NCBI GenBank assembly: GCA_036960695.1
Contig: JBALXM010000002.1
Span: 32,642 to 96,641, forward strand
Direction of reading: 5' to 3'
Length of the DNA: 64,000 bases
Source: Sneathiella sp.
GTDB lineage: Bacteria > Pseudomonadota > Alphaproteobacteria > Sneathiellales > Sneathiellaceae
Shown here: one piece after another, positions 12,439 through 19,207 of the stretch
Numbering within the stretch: the first letter of the stretch is position 1
How the letters are laid out: every line of letters begins with the position of its first letter
Made by a program: the position numbers and the translations under genes
The notes under the pieces: model-generated
The model's database searches: none
What the model saw: the letters and a program-made list of their open reading frames with translations, nothing else
What the model was told of the DNA's origin: nothing

Positions 12439-12831
12439 CTAGGATTTGATGTCCAGTAAAGTCGCTTGCATTTCATCCCAAGCCATCAATGACTTAATAT
12501 TTGCTTCATAAGACCGCTGGGCAAGCTTGTTGTTTACCAGCTCCGTCGCTATATCCACATTCGGTGTTTCAACGAACCCTTCTTCAGAAGCTAAGGGATT
12601 GTTTGGCTGATAAGTCAGGGAGGAGAAGGGTTGGCGGTCTTGAACCTTTACTTCTGGCTGGTTTGAAGGTCCAGAAACTTGAACGGCATCTAGTGCGTGA
12701 TACGCTGAAGTGCTCCCCGTTGCACCTGGAGTGCCAACCGTTTGAGAATTAGCAATATTGCTTGCACCAACAGCCACTGTTGTTGTGGCGGCGCGCATTC
12801 CAGCAAGTGCTGATCCTACAATCGATGACAT
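12439..12831 (-). CDS. FlgC-like flagellar basal-body rod domain protein (paralogue)
   Basis: SNIANSQT N-terminal motif and YQPNNPLASEEGFVETPNVDIATELVN..AQRSYEANIK C-terminal rod motif. Confidence 0.8.
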   Translation of the reverse strand: MSSIVGSALAGMRAATTTVAVGASNIANSQTVGTPGATGSTSAYHALDAVQVSGPSNQPEVKVQDRQPFSSLTYQPNNPLASEEGFVETPNVDIATELVNNKLAQRSYEANIKSLMAWDEMQATLLDIKS

Positions 12832-12912
12832 CCTAAATTCCAATTCAATAAAATTTTAAACAAACTTTATACGAAAATACAATTTCAATTACACACCTTT
12901 TAAGGGAAAATC

Positions 12913-12970: not shown

Positions 12971-12991
12971 AAAAACAGCCCCGAAGGGCTG
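12971..12991 (-). terminator. Rho-independent terminator ending the fliP/EndoU/YacL-like/VPLPA transcript
   Basis: The minus strand reads CAGCCC-TTCG-GGGCTG-TTTTT, 30 bp after the stop at 13022. Confidence 0.8.
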
Positions 12992-13021
12992 CCTAATTTT
13001 TTGGATTTCAGGTTTGTTTGA

Positions 13022-13357
13022 TTATGCAGTCGCTGACGTCTTGCGTTTTTTGCGCCATCCGACAAAACCAATAACAACAAGACCAGCACCGTATAACGGC
13101 AGGTCAGCTGGAAGAGGAACGACAGATACTTCGTAGCTTATTGACTGTAGACCGATACTTTTACCTAGCATAGCCGACAAGTTAAAACTTTCGATTGCTG
13201 TACCTCCAAACAAGGCTGAAACATCAAAGACACCATGATGCGACGGCATCGCAGTTCCCAAAACGGAATAATCAACCGTCACGGCAGAGGCCAGAGAGGG
13301 GAGACTTGGATGGAAATTGATTTTCGTTTCTAATTTTGATCCATGAGTGAGAGCCAT
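13022..13357 (-). pseudogene. VPLPA-CTERM (PEP-CTERM-type) sorting-domain ORF lacking a usable signal peptide; probable remnant or mini-protein
   Basis: C-terminus VVPLPADLPLYGAGLVVIGFVGWRKKRK (VPLPA, TM, basic tail). The N-terminus has no hydrophobic core. Confidence 0.6.
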
Positions 13358-13665
13358 TGTTTTAGGGTTTTTATGAGAAAGGCCTTGTCGTGGGAAAATA
13401 TTTCTGTCTCGTCGAAGAGATTTTCGACTGTAAAATTATCTTTTATAATCAATATATTATAAAGGTTTCCTGATAATTCAGATTGGCTATTTTTAGTCTC
13501 CATACACATGTTTAATAAGTGTTTGGCTAAGGCCGTATCTTCTTGAATTTCAGTTTCAAAAAATGCCTTTAGTATCTCTCCCTCTTCGTCGCATTGAATG
13601 TGAGGGGCGGTGCTGCTAACGGGTTTTGAGAGCTTAAACAGCATCTGATTACTCGTTTTTTGCAT
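13330..13665 (-). CDS. Small acidic protein, YacL/UPF0231-like; candidate inhibitor of the adjacent nuclease
   Basis: GEILKAFFETEIQEDTALA and ELSGNLYNILI..FTVEN resemble E. coli YacL segments as I recall them. Asp/Glu-rich. Start is 13665 (overlapping the upstream stop) or 13644. Confidence 0.5.
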   Translation of the reverse strand: MQKTSNQMLFKLSKPVSSTAPHIQCDEEGEILKAFFETEIQEDTALAKHLLNMCMETKNSQSELSGNLYNILIIKDNFTVENLFDETEIFSHDKAFLIKTLKQWLSLMDQN

Positions 13666-14158
13666 AGATAGGATAGGCCGTTATGATCCGCCCATCCTTT
13701 AATTGGTAGCCTTCCACCATAAAGCCAAATCCAGACGGGCCTCTCCATTTTCTCCCCGATTTGAGGGTGTTATTTTTATAGGCGTTCAGGATGGCTTTTA
13801 GAACTTGCAGCTTGCCAAAGCGGTCAGGAAACAGACTGGAGAATTTCTCTTTCCATATATTCTGGCTTTTATCGAGGATGCGTACAAGGGCTGTATAAAT
13901 ACCAACCTTGTTCGGGCCAGCCAGAAGTTTGGAGAGTTTCGCCGCGGGTTTGTCTTGACCCATAACGCGGTGGTGAAAGCCTGTGGGTTTTCCGTTGCGA
14001 TTTATCTGGCCGTCAAAAACGTGTGTTAGATTGACGGCTGGTGTTGTTTTTGACCAGCCATCACCATAACTCGATGCTTCAAAAGCGAGGAGAGGTGTTG
14101 CAGTAAAGGCATAAAGTAGGAAGAGGGAGAGGAGGGTTGCTTTAATGCATACCCTCAT
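13649..14158 (-). CDS. Secreted bacterial EndoU-family ribonuclease (stand-alone)
   Basis: Sec signal MRVCIKATLLSLFLLYAFTATPLLA, then HVFDGQIN..GKPTGFHH, KFSSLFP, W.G...F.VEGY, ITAYP. The ATG at 14158 overlaps the fliP stop (ATGA). Confidence 0.8.
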   Translation of the reverse strand: MRVCIKATLLSLFLLYAFTATPLLAFEASSYGDGWSKTTPAVNLTHVFDGQINRNGKPTGFHHRVMGQDKPAAKLSKLLAGPNKVGIYTALVRILDKSQNIWKEKFSSLFPDRFGKLQVLKAILNAYKNNTLKSGRKWRGPSGFGFMVEGYQLKDGRIITAYPIYAKNE

Positions 14159-14949
14159 GTTGGCCCAACGCCGCTGATAAAACTCTGCACCAAGCTGCGC
14201 GCCACCAAATTCCAACCATCCACCAAAACAAAGAAAATCAGCTTAAAGGGCAGGGCAATCATAACCGGCGGCAACATCATCATACCCATGGACATCAGGA
14301 TCGATGCCACGACCATATCAATGACAAGAAAGGGTATGAAAAGTAGGAAGCCGATTTCAAAAGCGCGTTTTAATTCGCTGATCATGAAGGAGGGAATTAA
14401 AACCTTTAGCGGAACTTCTTCTGGTGTTTCAACAATTTCCGTTTGGCTTAAATCCATGAACAACAAAATATCTTTCTCGCGAGCATGCTTTAACATGAAG
14501 TTCCGAAAAGGAATGGCTGTACGCTCAAACGCTGTTTCCTCGTCAATCTCTTCATTGATAAGGGGCAGGATGCCAGTCTGATAAGCGGCCTCGAATGTCG
14601 GGGCCATAATATAGCTGGTTAAAAACAAGGCTAGGGAGATGATAACAACATTTGGCGGTGTCGTTTGAATGCCGATAGCACTTCGGAGTAGGGATAAAAC
14701 CACAATCAACCGGGTAAAAGACGTGGTTACAATTAGAATGGCAGGCGCCAAACTTAACACCGTCATCAAAACAACAATTTGAACAATACGGCCTGTTAAT
14801 GGGCCAGCTTCTTCCCCAAGATCCAAGGAGAGTGACTGTGCGACGACGTCAGCGGGCATGAACCAAACGGCCAGCCCGAGTAATATTGTGAATACAATCC
14901 CTAAATTCTTGCGGAGAAGAGGGATGACTTTGCGCAGAGTGCTATTCAT
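14155..14949 (-). CDS. fliP: Flagellar type III secretion pore protein FliP
   Basis: TSFTRLIVVLSLLRSAIG.Q.TPPN, PSFMISELKRAFEIGF, MGMMMLPP, PFKLIFFVLVDGW. Confidence 0.97.
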   Translation of the reverse strand: MNSTLRKVIPLLRKNLGIVFTILLGLAVWFMPADVVAQSLSLDLGEEAGPLTGRIVQIVVLMTVLSLAPAILIVTTSFTRLIVVLSLLRSAIGIQTTPPNVVIISLALFLTSYIMAPTFEAAYQTGILPLINEEIDEETAFERTAIPFRNFMLKHAREKDILLFMDLSQTEIVETPEEVPLKVLIPSFMISELKRAFEIGFLLFIPFLVIDMVVASILMSMGMMMLPPVMIALPFKLIFFVLVDGWNLVARSLVQSFISGVGPT

Positions 14950-15326
14950 TGACTTGTCTCTGATTTCTTAAACGGAGAGGGCATTGTTGGGTATTTGGGA
15001 GCGGTCTCATCCGCCACCTCCGGTTCCTTGTCAGTTTCTTCGGTATTCGATGGTTTTCTTTTGACTGGAATGTTGCTCTCAATCAGTAAATCCCTGTCGG
15101 TTCCAAGCAAAACTAGATGTTCCTGATCATCCCGGCGGATAAGAACAAGTCTTCGCTTGGCATCTACGGATAAAACGCTTGTGACACCAAGGCGTTTCTT
15201 ATCGGAGCGCCGGTTGTCGGCATTAGCAACCATGCCAAATTTGCGCGCGGCCACCGTTATCAATCCGATTAACCCCAGAACAAAGAGAAGCCCTAGAATA
15301 TATTTCAGATAAGGATAAAATTCCAT
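14946..15326 (-). CDS. fliO: Flagellar biosynthesis protein FliO
   Basis: N-terminal TM, then RLGVTSVLSVDAKRRLVLIRRDDQEHLVLLG. ATGA overlap with fliP. Confidence 0.85.
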   Translation of the reverse strand: MEFYPYLKYILGLLFVLGLIGLITVAARKFGMVANADNRRSDKKRLGVTSVLSVDAKRRLVLIRRDDQEHLVLLGTDRDLLIESNIPVKRKPSNTEETDKEPEVADETAPKYPTMPSPFKKSETSQ

Positions 15327-15404: not shown

Positions 15405-15734
15405 CTATTCTTTCTTGTTTGAGTGAGGTTCCGCTGGCGATGACTGTCCGGAAGAGCCTTCATCCAAAATTGACACTTGATCGCTAATTTCATTATAGCG
15501 TTTTTGAATTTCCCCAGACATATCATCAAGAATGGCCAATATATCCTCTAAGGCGGTTGATAAAATCGACCGTCCCTCTTCGGGAGTATTTTGAACTTGA
15601 TTGTGTAAATCAAGCAGCCTGCCGGGAAGTTTGGATATATCGACGATATCCCCATTTTTTGTTTTAGCCAAATTGGATTGCATTTCCGCCTTGAGTTTTA
15701 AAACGGCTTCCAAAAGGTCAGGGTTAGGTGTCAT
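15405..15734 (-). CDS. Hypothetical alpha-helical protein in the flagellar operon
   Basis: ATG 15734 overlaps the end of the upstream gene. Amphipathic helical composition. Lies between the flhB-like gene and fliO. Confidence 0.55.
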   Translation of the reverse strand: MTPNPDLLEAVLKLKAEMQSNLAKTKNGDIVDISKLPGRLLDLHNQVQNTPEEGRSILSTALEDILAILDDMSGEIQKRYNEISDQVSILDEGSSGQSSPAEPHSNKKE

Positions 15735-16059
15735 TTGGGTTTCCGGTTTGTTCAAGTTCTGGCTTTGTCGTTGGGACATTTTGTACTCGGTAAAGATATG
15801 AAAGAATTTCTGAAACGGCGGCAAAGGCTTCAAGTGGGATGGGAGTGTCTACATCAACTTCTGACAAGATTTGCGCAAGATCCGCGTCTTCACGAACTTT
15901 AATTCCGTTTTCAAAGGCAATATTTAGTATTTGTTCAGCAAGATCACCGTGGCCCGTTGCTGTTACAACGGGTAACTTTTCGGATCCTTTTTCATGGGAA
16001 AGTGCAACCGCCACTGTTCTTGGCTTTTTAGATTCAGTATGATCAGTCTCGTCGGTCAT
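15724..16059 (-). CDS. Stand-alone FlhB C-terminal-like protein (EscU/YscU/HrcU family)
   Basis: AVAL....P.V.A.G.G.LAEQIL.IA.ENGI.VRED.DLAQIL...D..IP.E.F.AV.EIL matches the cleaved C-terminal part of FlhB. Confidence 0.88.
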   Translation of the reverse strand: MTDETDHTESKKPRTVAVALSHEKGSEKLPVVTATGHGDLAEQILNIAFENGIKVREDADLAQILSEVDVDTPIPLEAFAAVSEILSYLYRVQNVPTTKPELEQTGNPNDT

Positions 16060-16164: not shown

Positions 16165-17178
16165 TTAGGAGGTGGCAGACCCAACGATCAGTCTTGCTGT
16201 GGCACGAATATCCCGGACCTCAGCTTGATCAAGAAAGCCTCTCTCCATCATCTCCTTGTGGCATTCTGCCAGATTATAATGGGGGATGGAGGGGTATAGA
16301 TGATGCTCAATATGATAGTTGACGTTATGAGGGAAGAATAAAAACCGGATCCAAAAAGGCCCTGTATTTGTTCTTGAGGCGCGAACCGGACTTTTAAGGT
16401 CATCAACAGCACCATGTTCGCAAATGGCACGAAAGCGTAAAATCGGTTGAAGAAAAGTAATTAAGGGCAAGATCCATAGAACCAGGTATTCTAACAAATA
16501 CCCTGTGGAATATGCAGCGACGGGCGCTAATAAATGAAAAGCAATGATACTCCACCGATCTCTATTCGCGGCTTTTCTTAAAATGGGGGATGTATCATCC
16601 AGCGGTCTCAGTTTTTTGTTATCTCCCTCTATCAGTTCGGAATTTTCGGCAGGCGCGCCAAAGAAATAGGCGAATGTTTTAAACGCAGTTCCCCCCATAA
16701 GATCTTTGAGGAGTTTTTTTGCAAGATAGGTTCTGCCCCGTGGGTAGCCGCCGTGAAGCGGGACATCGGGGTCTTGCCGCCCATATAAATGATTGTGATG
16801 CAGACGATGCAGAATACGATAGCTACAAATAGATATCCCGACAGGGGATGCGATCAATCGTCCCACCAAATCATTAAGCCCGCGTGCTTTGAATAAACGG
16901 TAATGGGCCGCATCATGGGCAATCACAAAACAGGCTTGTTGCCGCGTTGCAATGAAGAGGAGGCAAGGGATCACAACCCATGGCGTCCAGAAATAAAGAG
17001 ACAGGCCAATCGCAAGCCCCGTTAGGCCAACAGTCTGGGCGATCGCAAGGGACGATTTGAAGGCGTTAATTCGAGTGAGTCTTTTAATAACATCAGGCGG
17101 TAGGTGCCTTGATCGTGTGACGCCTTCTCTAAATTCTTGGCCTGAGGACTGATCGGCTATTTTTTCGTTCTTTTCCAT
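16165..17178 (-). CDS. Membrane fatty-acid desaturase family protein
   Basis: Three His boxes: HDAAH, HRLHH, HIEHH(LYPSIP). Confidence 0.88.
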   Translation of the reverse strand: MEKNEKIADQSSGQEFREGVTRSRHLPPDVIKRLTRINAFKSSLAIAQTVGLTGLAIGLSLYFWTPWVVIPCLLFIATRQQACFVIAHDAAHYRLFKARGLNDLVGRLIASPVGISICSYRILHRLHHNHLYGRQDPDVPLHGGYPRGRTYLAKKLLKDLMGGTAFKTFAYFFGAPAENSELIEGDNKKLRPLDDTSPILRKAANRDRWSIIAFHLLAPVAAYSTGYLLEYLVLWILPLITFLQPILRFRAICEHGAVDDLKSPVRASRTNTGPFWIRFLFFPHNVNYHIEHHLYPSIPHYNLAECHKEMMERGFLDQAEVRDIRATARLIVGSATS

Positions 17179-18382: not shown

Positions 18383-18781
18383 ATGAGTTTGCAGGACATA
18401 CCCTTATTTGCAGCTTTGACGGAACGGATGAAATGGTTGTCCTCCCGGCAAAAAGTGCTGTCGCAAAACATATCCAATGCGGATACACCGGGCTATGCAG
18501 CCCGTGATTTGAAGCCGCAGAATTTTAAGGATATGGTTGCGCGCCCGAGCGAGGCCTCGGCTCAACTCACAAGTACAAATGTTAAACATATACAAGCTGC
18601 TGATAAGTCAGAATTTCGGACGAAAACTGTTAAAGAACCTTACGAGATAACGCCCACAGGGAACGGTGTCGTTCTTGAAGAGCAAATGATGCACTTGGCA
18701 GATACACAAATTCAATACCAAATGACCACATCTTTATATAAGAAACATCTCAGCATGCTTAAGGCTGCACTGGGTCGATAA
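18383..18781 (+). CDS. flgB: Flagellar basal-body rod protein FlgB
   Basis: RQKVLSQNISNADTPGY.ARD and GNGVVLEEQM motifs. Confidence 0.95.
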   Translation: MSLQDIPLFAALTERMKWLSSRQKVLSQNISNADTPGYAARDLKPQNFKDMVARPSEASAQLTSTNVKHIQAADKSEFRTKTVKEPYEITPTGNGVVLEEQMMHLADTQIQYQMTTSLYKKHLSMLKAALGR

Positions 18782-18799
18782 TAGTCTGGAGACAATTAA

Positions 18800-19207
18800 G
18801 TGGATTTATTAAAATCAATGGCTATTTCCGCTTCGGGTATGAAAGCCCAAGGTGAACGTATGCGGGTTATTTCTGAAAACCTAGCCAATAAAGATAGTGT
18901 TGGCCGGACCGCAAATGAAGACCCATATCGGCGTAAAATGGTAACATTCAAAAATGTGTTGGACAAAAGCACGGATGCGAGACAGGTCATTGTCGATAAG
19001 GTTATTGAAGATAAAACAGCTTTTGGGTTGAAATTTGACCCAAGTCATCCAGCGGCTAACGAAGACGGTTATGTTAAAGTGCCGAACGTGAATGCTCTGG
19101 TTGAAATGATGGATATGAAAGAAACGCAACGATCCTATCAAGCAAATCTTGGGGTTATTGATGCTTCCAAGAAAATGATTATGCAAACATTGGATATATT
19201 GCGTTAG
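18800..19207 (+). CDS. flgC: Flagellar basal-body rod protein FlgC
   Basis: SASGMKAQGERMRVISENLAN, DPYRRK, DPSHPAANEDGYVKVPNVN. GTG start. Confidence 0.96.
   Translation: MDLLKSMAISASGMKAQGERMRVISENLANKDSVGRTANEDPYRRKMVTFKNVLDKSTDARQVIVDKVIEDKTAFGLKFDPSHPAANEDGYVKVPNVNALVEMMDMKETQRSYQANLGVIDASKKMIMQTLDILR

Follow-up and report, generated by a model that had tools for sequence, protein, structure and literature searches.

A predicted Sec-exported EndoU ribonuclease and its YacL-like partner are encoded in the fliO-fliP operon of Sneathiellales

Polymorphic EndoU toxins (CdiA-CT STECO31, MafB MGI-1NEM8013, BC_0920 and the tips of LXG and Rhs proteins) have in common a catalytic domain of the family PF14436, and an immunity-type gene stands directly after the toxin gene, often overlapping it. 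In the barnase/barstar pair a small basic ribonuclease (RNase) bearing a signal peptide is matched by a small acidic inhibitor without one. In the passages of Zhang et al. (2012) that deal with these enzymes, EndoU is described as having a duplicated BECR topology, a fold class distantly shared with barnase, and a BECR-fold RNase of the colicin E5/D clade is placed consistently within firmicute flagellar operons, its role being left open. Here we analyze an EndoU gene and a small acidic partner gene that follow fliP in a flagellar operon of Sneathiella sp. (assembly GCA_036960695.1, contig JBALXM010000002.1, positions 32,642 to 96,641). The window is this whole stretch of 64,000 nucleotides (nt), and all window coordinates count from its first letter.

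An EndoU nuclease and an acidic partner encoded behind fliP

The original prediction, made from the letters of the window, described an open reading frame (ORF) of 169 residues with an EndoU pattern, its start codon sharing an ATGA with the stop codon of fliP. This ORF was confirmed on the minus strand at 13649-14158: fliP ends in ...CCAACATGA, and the ATG of that ATGA (14158-14156) is the start codon of the EndoU gene. A hidden Markov model (HMM) search agreed with the pattern, since the protein matched PF14436 (EndoU_bacteria) with 68.1 bits (cutoff 25.3; E 1.3e-18) over profile positions 5-128 of 129 (124 covered), and the motifs quoted were all present (THVFDGQINRNGKPTGFHHR, KEKFSSLFPD and RIITAYPIY). 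PF14436 was also found in 41 of 41 database homologs of the window EndoU, whose closest relatives are in Sneathiella genomes, at 69% identity; the exact window protein gave no match when looked up in public assemblies. Residues H46 (codon CAC, 14023-14021), H62, K105, S107 and T160 were invariant in an alignment of 23 homologs. The lysine presumably takes part in catalysis, as it does in XendoU. The window protein carries the EndoU signature of Zhang et al. (2012), namely H, H, [SNT] and [SNT], and in addition the Lys, and H46 and H62 are 16 residues apart, equal to the spacing of H162 and H178 in XendoU given in the same source. These results confirm the nuclease as a member of the EndoU family.

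The mature domain, residues 26-169 (13649-14083 with the stop codon, minus strand; PF14436, 68 bits), is basic, with an isoelectric point (pI) of 10.07 and 23 Lys and Arg against 10 Asp and Glu residues, as its description as Lys/Arg-rich had implied. The AlphaFold2 model (predicted local distance difference test, pLDDT, 91) shows a helix at residues 3-19, a disordered linker of low confidence and then a domain of one alpha-helix and three beta-strands followed by a second such unit. This order of secondary structure elements appears to fit the duplicated BECR topology of EndoU. The enzyme is predicted to be a metal-independent RNase leaving 2',3'-cyclic phosphate ends.

The partner gene lies immediately downstream on the same strand. 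Its ORF was listed as 13330-13665, with an alternative start at 13665, and the alignment of homologs favours the ATG at 13644, giving a protein of 104 residues (13330-13644) and a gap of 4 nt after the EndoU stop codon. In line with the small, acidic, signal-less product first proposed, its pI is 4.70, with 17 Asp and Glu against 9 Lys and Arg residues. The charges are complementary across the families too, the enzymes having a median pI of 10.3 and the partners one of 4.4. Conserved partner motifs are FLExDxQ, (T/S)GN and a C-terminal W.

Database relatives of the partner were gathered with a profile built from the locus-encoded partners. Most of them carry PF06062 (UPF0231) and are named 'YacL family protein', and PF06062 was matched by 26 of 36 partner homologs (E up to 0.01; best 5.4e-9). 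The partner family profile gave a full-length alignment with E. coli YacL (hhalign probability 91.9%, E 6.8e-7), and the partner thus appears to be a distant YacL (UPF0231) relative. Residues Q34, G59-N60 and W97 are invariant in the EndoU-linked clade, and at the aligned positions E. coli YacL has K, G-H and Y. The AlphaFold model of the partner (pLDDT 90) has the order beta-beta-alpha-alpha-beta4-alpha; a Foldseek search of the PDB with this model gave no significant match, solved CdiI immunity structures included, and a search of PDB sequences with the partner profile gave no match.

The association of the two genes was determined in a survey of 79 genome loci encoding an EndoU homolog, which come from Sneathiellales, uncultured Gammaproteobacteria, Acidobacteriota (Thermoanaerobaculia and Holophagales) and one Solobacterium (Firmicutes). 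A partner homolog stands directly downstream of EndoU in 76 loci, 65 of them recognized by iterative HMM search and 11 by a six-frame HMM search, and in two of the three loci without a partner the contig breaks off shortly behind EndoU. Overlaps of 4 nt between the two genes are frequent. EndoU and partner are a widespread conserved module: since homologs of both genes are conserved and their order is kept in dozens of genomes, they are not a chance pair of ORFs. In one Thermoanaerobaculaceae genome EndoU is present twice, at a distance of about 5.6 kb (L039, 416-808 and 6001-6486). Two contigs are probably binning errors, the one assigned to a 'Pseudomonas marincola' metagenome-assembled genome (MAG; L009), which matches Sneathiellales loci, and the one assigned to a 'Bathyarchaeota archaeon' MAG (L016), which matches gammaproteobacterial loci.

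The Sec signal peptide that the original prediction had given to EndoU was supported by a signal-like N-terminus, MRVCIKATLLSLFLLYAFTATPLLA|FEAS, in which a basic start is followed by a hydrophobic core and a plausible site for signal peptidase. The predicted signal comprises residues 1-25 (14084-14158, minus strand), as judged by the heuristic and the helix of the AlphaFold model. By the same heuristic, which takes hydrophobicity and cleavage site into account, 76 of the 79 homologs have a signal-like N-terminal segment. Many of their cleavage sites are canonical AXA (for example SAFA|EKK and AQA|EKK) and some are lipoboxes. The lipobox-like signals (for example ALLSGC and LLAGC) occur among L054, L065, L070, L072, L074 and L075 and suggest lipoprotein forms; many acidobacterial members (L031-L066) have Ser/Arg-rich linkers (SRSHSRSR) between signal and domain. 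Inspection of the partner sequences revealed no hydrophobic N-terminal segment. EndoU is therefore likely to be exported by its Sec signal and the partner to remain in the cytoplasm. EndoU as a substrate of flagellar type III export or as a structural protein found no support, there being no match to a flagellar family, the N-terminus being a hydrophobic helix and the pair standing apart from flagellar genes in other lineages.

Kinship to polymorphic toxins and their immunity genes

An exhaustive profile search with the EndoU family returned 1803 cluster representatives. The top-scoring matches were mostly proteins of 160-220 residues, and from about E 1e-35 proteins of 1100-2100 residues appeared with the same domain at their extreme C-terminus. 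Rhs/YD repeats were present in four of the six long proteins inspected (P0199, P0254, P0263 and P0276), and the inspected proteins scored above 100 bits against a profile of the window EndoU clade. Plasmid-encoded LXG and WXG100-type type VII toxins of Bacillus and Priestia matched EndoU at 27-37% identity. The sharing of this domain with Rhs, LXG and WXG100-type tips suggests that the window enzyme is a stripped-down relative of polymorphic toxin tips, consisting of a signal peptide and the catalytic domain.

Polymorphic toxins have a large N-terminal trafficking or repeat region, a variable C-terminal tip and a cognate downstream gene. The last of these is found here as well, with the 4-nt gap of the window and the pairing seen in the survey. 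The N-terminal region is not: the window protein has a 25-residue signal and a short linker before the catalytic domain. Nor is the polymorphism, the gene being single-copy, at a common locus in 11 Sneathiellales genomes and in one clade. No alternative tips or orphan cassettes were seen in the flanks of the EndoU/partner loci.

The position after the toxin gene was analyzed in nine EndoU toxin loci from a plasmid collection by scoring all six-frame ORFs with the partner HMM. In all nine the top match was the ORF immediately after the toxin domain. The highest score, 41.8 bits, was obtained in Priestia megaterium, behind a toxin with LXG, PT-TG and EndoU domains (hhalign 96.6%), followed by B. 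cereus (33.3 bits), where a long protein tipped with EndoU adjoins genes for type VII secretion system (T7SS) effectors, B. pseudomycoides (32.4 bits; WXG100-type toxin) and Streptomyces (29.2 bits, hhalign 95.9%; long protein tipped with EndoU). The ORF behind a Cronobacter protein with EndoU at its C-terminus scored 17.4 bits (hhalign 74%), that behind an unannotated Neisseria ORF matching EndoU 10.6 bits (hhalign 54%, a weak homology) and that of the B. mycoides EndoU locus 10.5 bits. In Fusobacterium, where EndoU is followed by DUF5376, the score was 7.4 bits and hhalign gave 3.7%, indicating no relation; the 5.9 bits of the ORF downstream of EndoU in the Listeria locus is not significant. 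The partner family thus stands in the immunity position behind accepted polymorphic EndoU toxins from at least two other phyla.

What has been published on MafB/MafI as a toxin and its immunity protein in Neisseria cannot be extended to the partner family, because the ORF after EndoU in N. gonorrhoeae aligned only weakly with the partner (54%). A 5.5-kb plasmid of Fusobacterium hwasookii (L093) carries two tandem cassettes of EndoU and DUF5376, with DUF5376 in the immunity slot.

The flagellar operon and the history of the pair

The genes before the pair are all on the minus strand. A gene for the C-terminal domain of FlhB only (15724-16059) matched TIGR00789 (flhB_rel; E 5e-20, 71.5 bits, below the cutoff of 117.35) and PF01312 (61.7 bits, above the cutoff of 24.4). 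It overlaps orf142 (15405-15833), an ORF of 142 residues that matched no family in Pfam and TIGR profile scans. Then come fliO (14946-15326; Pfam FliO 24.4 bits, above the cutoff of 22; TIGR03500 E 5.8e-9, 35.9 bits, below the cutoff of 55.25) and fliP (14155-14949), which encodes the flagellar export-gate protein (Pfam FliP E 9.7e-80; TIGR01103 291 bits, above the cutoff). The fliO stop codon overlaps the fliP start. The plus strand, divergent from this operon, carries a DJ-1/PfpI gene, flgB, flgC and fliE, fliQ, fliR and flhB, and a hybrid histidine kinase gene, as seen in the window and by synteny with Sneathiella chinensis (L080); the canonical flgB-flgC are at 18383-19207. With divergent flagellar genes on one strand and the operon on the other, the EndoU/partner pair therefore lies inside a flagellar export-gate cluster.

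The order FlhB C-terminal-like gene, orf142, fliO, fliP, EndoU, partner, a variable slot and a flgC-like gene recurs in 10 Sneathiellales loci, and fliO is kept upstream of fliP in those whose contigs extend that far. In all 10 loci, as in the window, the start of EndoU overlaps the stop of fliP, the overlap being ATGA in six and another overlap of 1-23 nt in four. No consensus promoter was seen at the fliP-EndoU junction. We infer that the pair is co-transcribed with fliP, and the co-expression that had been proposed gains support from the overlap of start and stop codons throughout these loci.

The pair has other surroundings outside Sneathiellales. In about 69 loci outside the flagellar set no fliP was found near the pair, which is set among housekeeping genes in Terasakiella, flanked by a divergent mla operon and a GreA/GreB-family gene in gammaproteobacterial MAGs, and between differing genes in Acidobacteriota. 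The flagellar position occurs only in Sneathiellales (10 loci and the window), and since the pair occupies unrelated chromosomal contexts elsewhere, this position looks like a lineage-specific capture and not the core of its function.

The 11 Sneathiellales EndoU sequences formed one clade in a neighbour-joining tree (calculated without bootstrap), and the GC content of the pair is native to its region. A recent horizontal insertion was rejected on these two grounds. The simplest reading would be one ancient capture into the fliO-fliP operon followed by vertical inheritance, with translation coupled to that of fliP.

Downstream of the partner the original prediction had passed over a third ORF, of 111 residues (13022-13357, minus strand), which was found in the ORF list and precedes the terminator. 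It overlaps the 3' end of the partner gene by 28 nt and lacks an N-terminal signal peptide. Its C-terminal tail, VVPLPADLPLYGAGLVVIGFVGWRKKRK, is VPLPA/PEP-CTERM-like and gave weak matches to PEP-CTERM models (E 0.01-0.05). The slot is variable among relatives, being occupied by LysE in 7 Sneathiellales loci and empty in L001, L008 and L009, and the third ORF is probably a lineage-specific insertion or remnant. As first noted, no strong terminator is reached before 12991-12971; there the intrinsic terminator that ends the operon (12971-12993, minus strand) has the hairpin GGCAGCCC-TTCG-GGGCTG followed by TTTTT, that is, the stem CAGCCC-TTCG-GGGCTG with its T-run, the first strong terminator 3' of the pair.

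Beyond the terminator lies a gene for a FlgC-like rod-protein paralog (12439-12843, minus strand; Flg_bbr_C E 1.9e-11, above the cutoff; TIGR01395 FlgC 71 bits, below the cutoff of 102). Each of the 10 Sneathiellales loci has such a paralog downstream of the pair, additional to the canonical flgB-flgC. The gene for the FlhB C-terminal domain and the overlapping orf142 are likewise conserved together upstream of fliO in Sneathiellales, with their order kept. A fatty-acid desaturase gene (16165-17178, minus strand) between the DJ-1/PfpI gene and the flagellar operon is kept at the equivalent place in 7 Sneathiellales loci and not in S. chinensis.

Proposed function and comparison with known systems

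We consider it probable, though with some reserve, that the pair consists of a Sec-exported EndoU RNase and a YacL-like immunity protein guarding the producer from inside the cytoplasm, expressed here with the fliO-fliP operon but independent of flagella in its basic function. EndoU would be made with a cleavable N-terminal signal peptide and cross the inner membrane, and the signal-less partner would stay in the cytoplasm, where it would bind and neutralize any EndoU that folds before export, as barstar does for barnase and immunity proteins do for polymorphic toxins. We infer this physical inhibition from the pairing in 76 of 79 loci and from the partner homologs in the immunity position after EndoU toxins, both of which favour the RNase/inhibitor pair originally proposed. 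Outside the cytoplasm the basic EndoU would cut RNA by a metal-independent His-His-Lys mechanism, producing 2',3'-cyclic phosphate ends. In its origin the module would be related to the domains that tip Rhs and LXG toxins at the C-terminus and to the immunity genes that go with them. An ancestor of Sneathiellales would have captured it once, between fliP and the flgC-like gene, and by translational coupling to fliP EndoU would be made whenever the export-gate operon fliO-fliP is expressed.

Several observations weigh against this explanation. A Foldseek search with the EndoU model against the PDB and BFVD gave no match with E below 0.07, and a profile search of PDB sequences with the EndoU family gave none at all, so that the fold is assigned from the Pfam HMM, from the catalytic motif and from the order of secondary structure elements. 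The signal-peptide calls are heuristic, and in Gram-negative bacteria a Sec signal brings a protein only into the periplasm. The window partner scored 23.5 bits against PF06062, just below the cutoff of 25 bits, and the weak homology in Neisseria and the unrelated DUF5376 in Fusobacterium belong here too. The E. coli K-12 gene yacL (b0119; L084, 3889-4251) stands alone between acnB and speD, with no EndoU gene beside it, and its product, the sole studied member of the family, crosslinks to RNA polymerase and NusG (PMC8196013). Finally, a GreA/GreB-family gene follows the EndoU/partner pair in 12 gammaproteobacterial loci, which hints at a transcription-related role of the partner. The GreA/GreB loci (L082, 8001-9315; L013-L017, L019-L021, L024, L026, L027 and L029) have this gene on the same strand as the pair, at a distance of 1-232 nt in 9 loci, the called ORF overlapping the partner end in 3.

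The last two points could mean that the partner, instead of being an inhibitor, associates with RNA polymerase in the manner of E. coli YacL, its adjacency to EndoU reflecting a different shared process. The full-length alignment with E. coli YacL and the PF06062 matches of the 26 homologs agree with such a role. However, we regard it as very improbable: the residues that are invariant in the EndoU-linked clade differ in E. coli YacL, an exported enzyme would have no cytoplasmic process in common with the partner, and the family is found also after EndoU-tipped toxins, including T7SS LXG and WXG100-type toxins, for which immunity is the standard reading. Moreover, the linkage to GreB was seen only in MAGs of Gammaproteobacteria, and a single lineage may account for it. 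The immunity slot also raises the question whether the pair is an active antibacterial weapon, EndoU being released, for example, by outer-membrane vesicles (OMVs) or another secretion step, the partner giving immunity to self and kin, and the linkage to fliP arming swimming cells. The catalytic domain is indeed closest to Rhs, LXG and WXG100-type toxin tips, whose immunity slot the partner family occupies, and a review table lists the signal-peptide-bearing Neisseria MafB EndoU toxin under its OMV heading and calls it an outer-membrane-exported toxin. EndoU and partner are also among the fastest-evolving genes of the operon, their identity to L001 being 69% and 59%, that of FliP 91%. We nevertheless find a weapon unlikely, since the protein, a signal peptide and about 140 residues, lacks any domain for receptor binding or translocation, the pair is single-copy at one locus across the whole order and in core-genome contexts elsewhere, orphan immunity arrays and alternative toxin cassettes are missing, and the partner motifs are invariant across phyla, unlike those of fast-diversifying immunity proteins.

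A domesticated role tied to motility, in which the enzyme would produce periplasmic RNA fragments with 2',3'-cyclic phosphates or 2',3'-cyclic nucleotide monophosphates (cNMPs), or digest extracellular RNA, within the flagellar programme, agrees with the translational coupling to fliP kept throughout Sneathiellales and with vertical inheritance. It also has precedents in E. coli and Salmonella, where the 2',3'-cNMPs made by RNase I influence biofilm formation and flagellar motility (PMC8765455), and in the other BECR-fold RNase consistently located in firmicute flagellar operons according to the relevant passage of Zhang et al. (2012). On the other hand, flagellar genes do not adjoin the pair in Gammaproteobacteria, Acidobacteriota and Terasakiella, and its N-terminus is a hydrophobic Sec-type signal and not a flagellar type III export signal, and such a role seems to us improbable. 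A bolder proposal, which we put forward as a speculation with a small chance of being right, is that the widespread YacL/UPF0231 family would at root be the cognate immunity family of EndoU, and that enterobacterial YacL would have been orphaned and repurposed. In Sneathiellales the flagellar regulon would then have taken over the pair for a task in the motility phase other than simple toxin and immunity, be it periplasmic or extracellular RNA cleavage or 2',3'-cyclic signalling.

Two further identities were rejected. For a known anti-phage defence system this holds for now, PADLOC-DB models having matched none of EndoU, the partner and two scanned neighbour ORFs; a classical type II toxin-antitoxin system does not agree with a toxin that has an export signal and a window partner that has no helix-turn-helix Pfam domain.

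A Sec-exported EndoU with a YacL-like immunity protein would give a candidate function, as EndoU inhibitor or immunity protein, to the relatives of YacL/UPF0231, an uncharacterized family. In the literature searched no paper was found that mentions EndoU and YacL together. The view that the arrangement had not been described is qualified by a published parallel, the firmicute flagellar operons in which Zhang et al. (2012) noted a BECR-fold RNase from a different clade. With that example of 2012, the pair would make two independent instances in which flagellar operons contain such an RNase. It also suggests a minimal EndoU module of signal peptide, catalytic domain and immunity protein which is present in at least four phyla and behaves as a core gene pair, not as a mobile weapon, and this prompts one to ask what an exported EndoU is for in the ordinary physiology of a cell. 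In cultured Sneathiella species the pair makes the question 'why an RNase with flagella?' experimentally approachable.

The pair resembles polymorphic EndoU toxins in its PF14436 domain and in the gene that directly follows, and the immunity genes of the Priestia, Bacillus T7SS-type and Streptomyces EndoU toxins appear homologous to the window partner. Unlike these toxins, the window EndoU has no delivery, repeat or pre-toxin domain and only a Sec signal, and the window-type pair is single-copy, syntenic and apparently vertically inherited, in flagellar or housekeeping contexts and not in toxin islands. The likeness to barnase/barstar is that of a small basic enzyme with a signal, as judged heuristically, and a small acidic partner without one; the families are different, and neither window protein matched barnase or barstar in Pfam.

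E. coli YacL, a distant full-length homolog of the partner family, is likewise small, acidic and cytoplasmic, and differs in having no EndoU beside it and in its association with RNA polymerase and NusG. E. coli RNase I, a periplasmic enzyme of the T2 family, is unrelated to EndoU and is not known to have a dedicated inhibitor gene adjacent to it. It is comparable as an exported non-specific RNase whose 2',3'-cyclic products influence motility and biofilm formation (PMC8765455). The firmicute RNase is of the colicin E5/D clade and from another phylum, and the passage of Zhang et al. (2012) that describes it mentions neither a partner gene nor a signal peptide. Its likeness to the EndoU of Sneathiellales is that of a metal-independent RNase of the same broad fold, encoded inside a flagellar operon.

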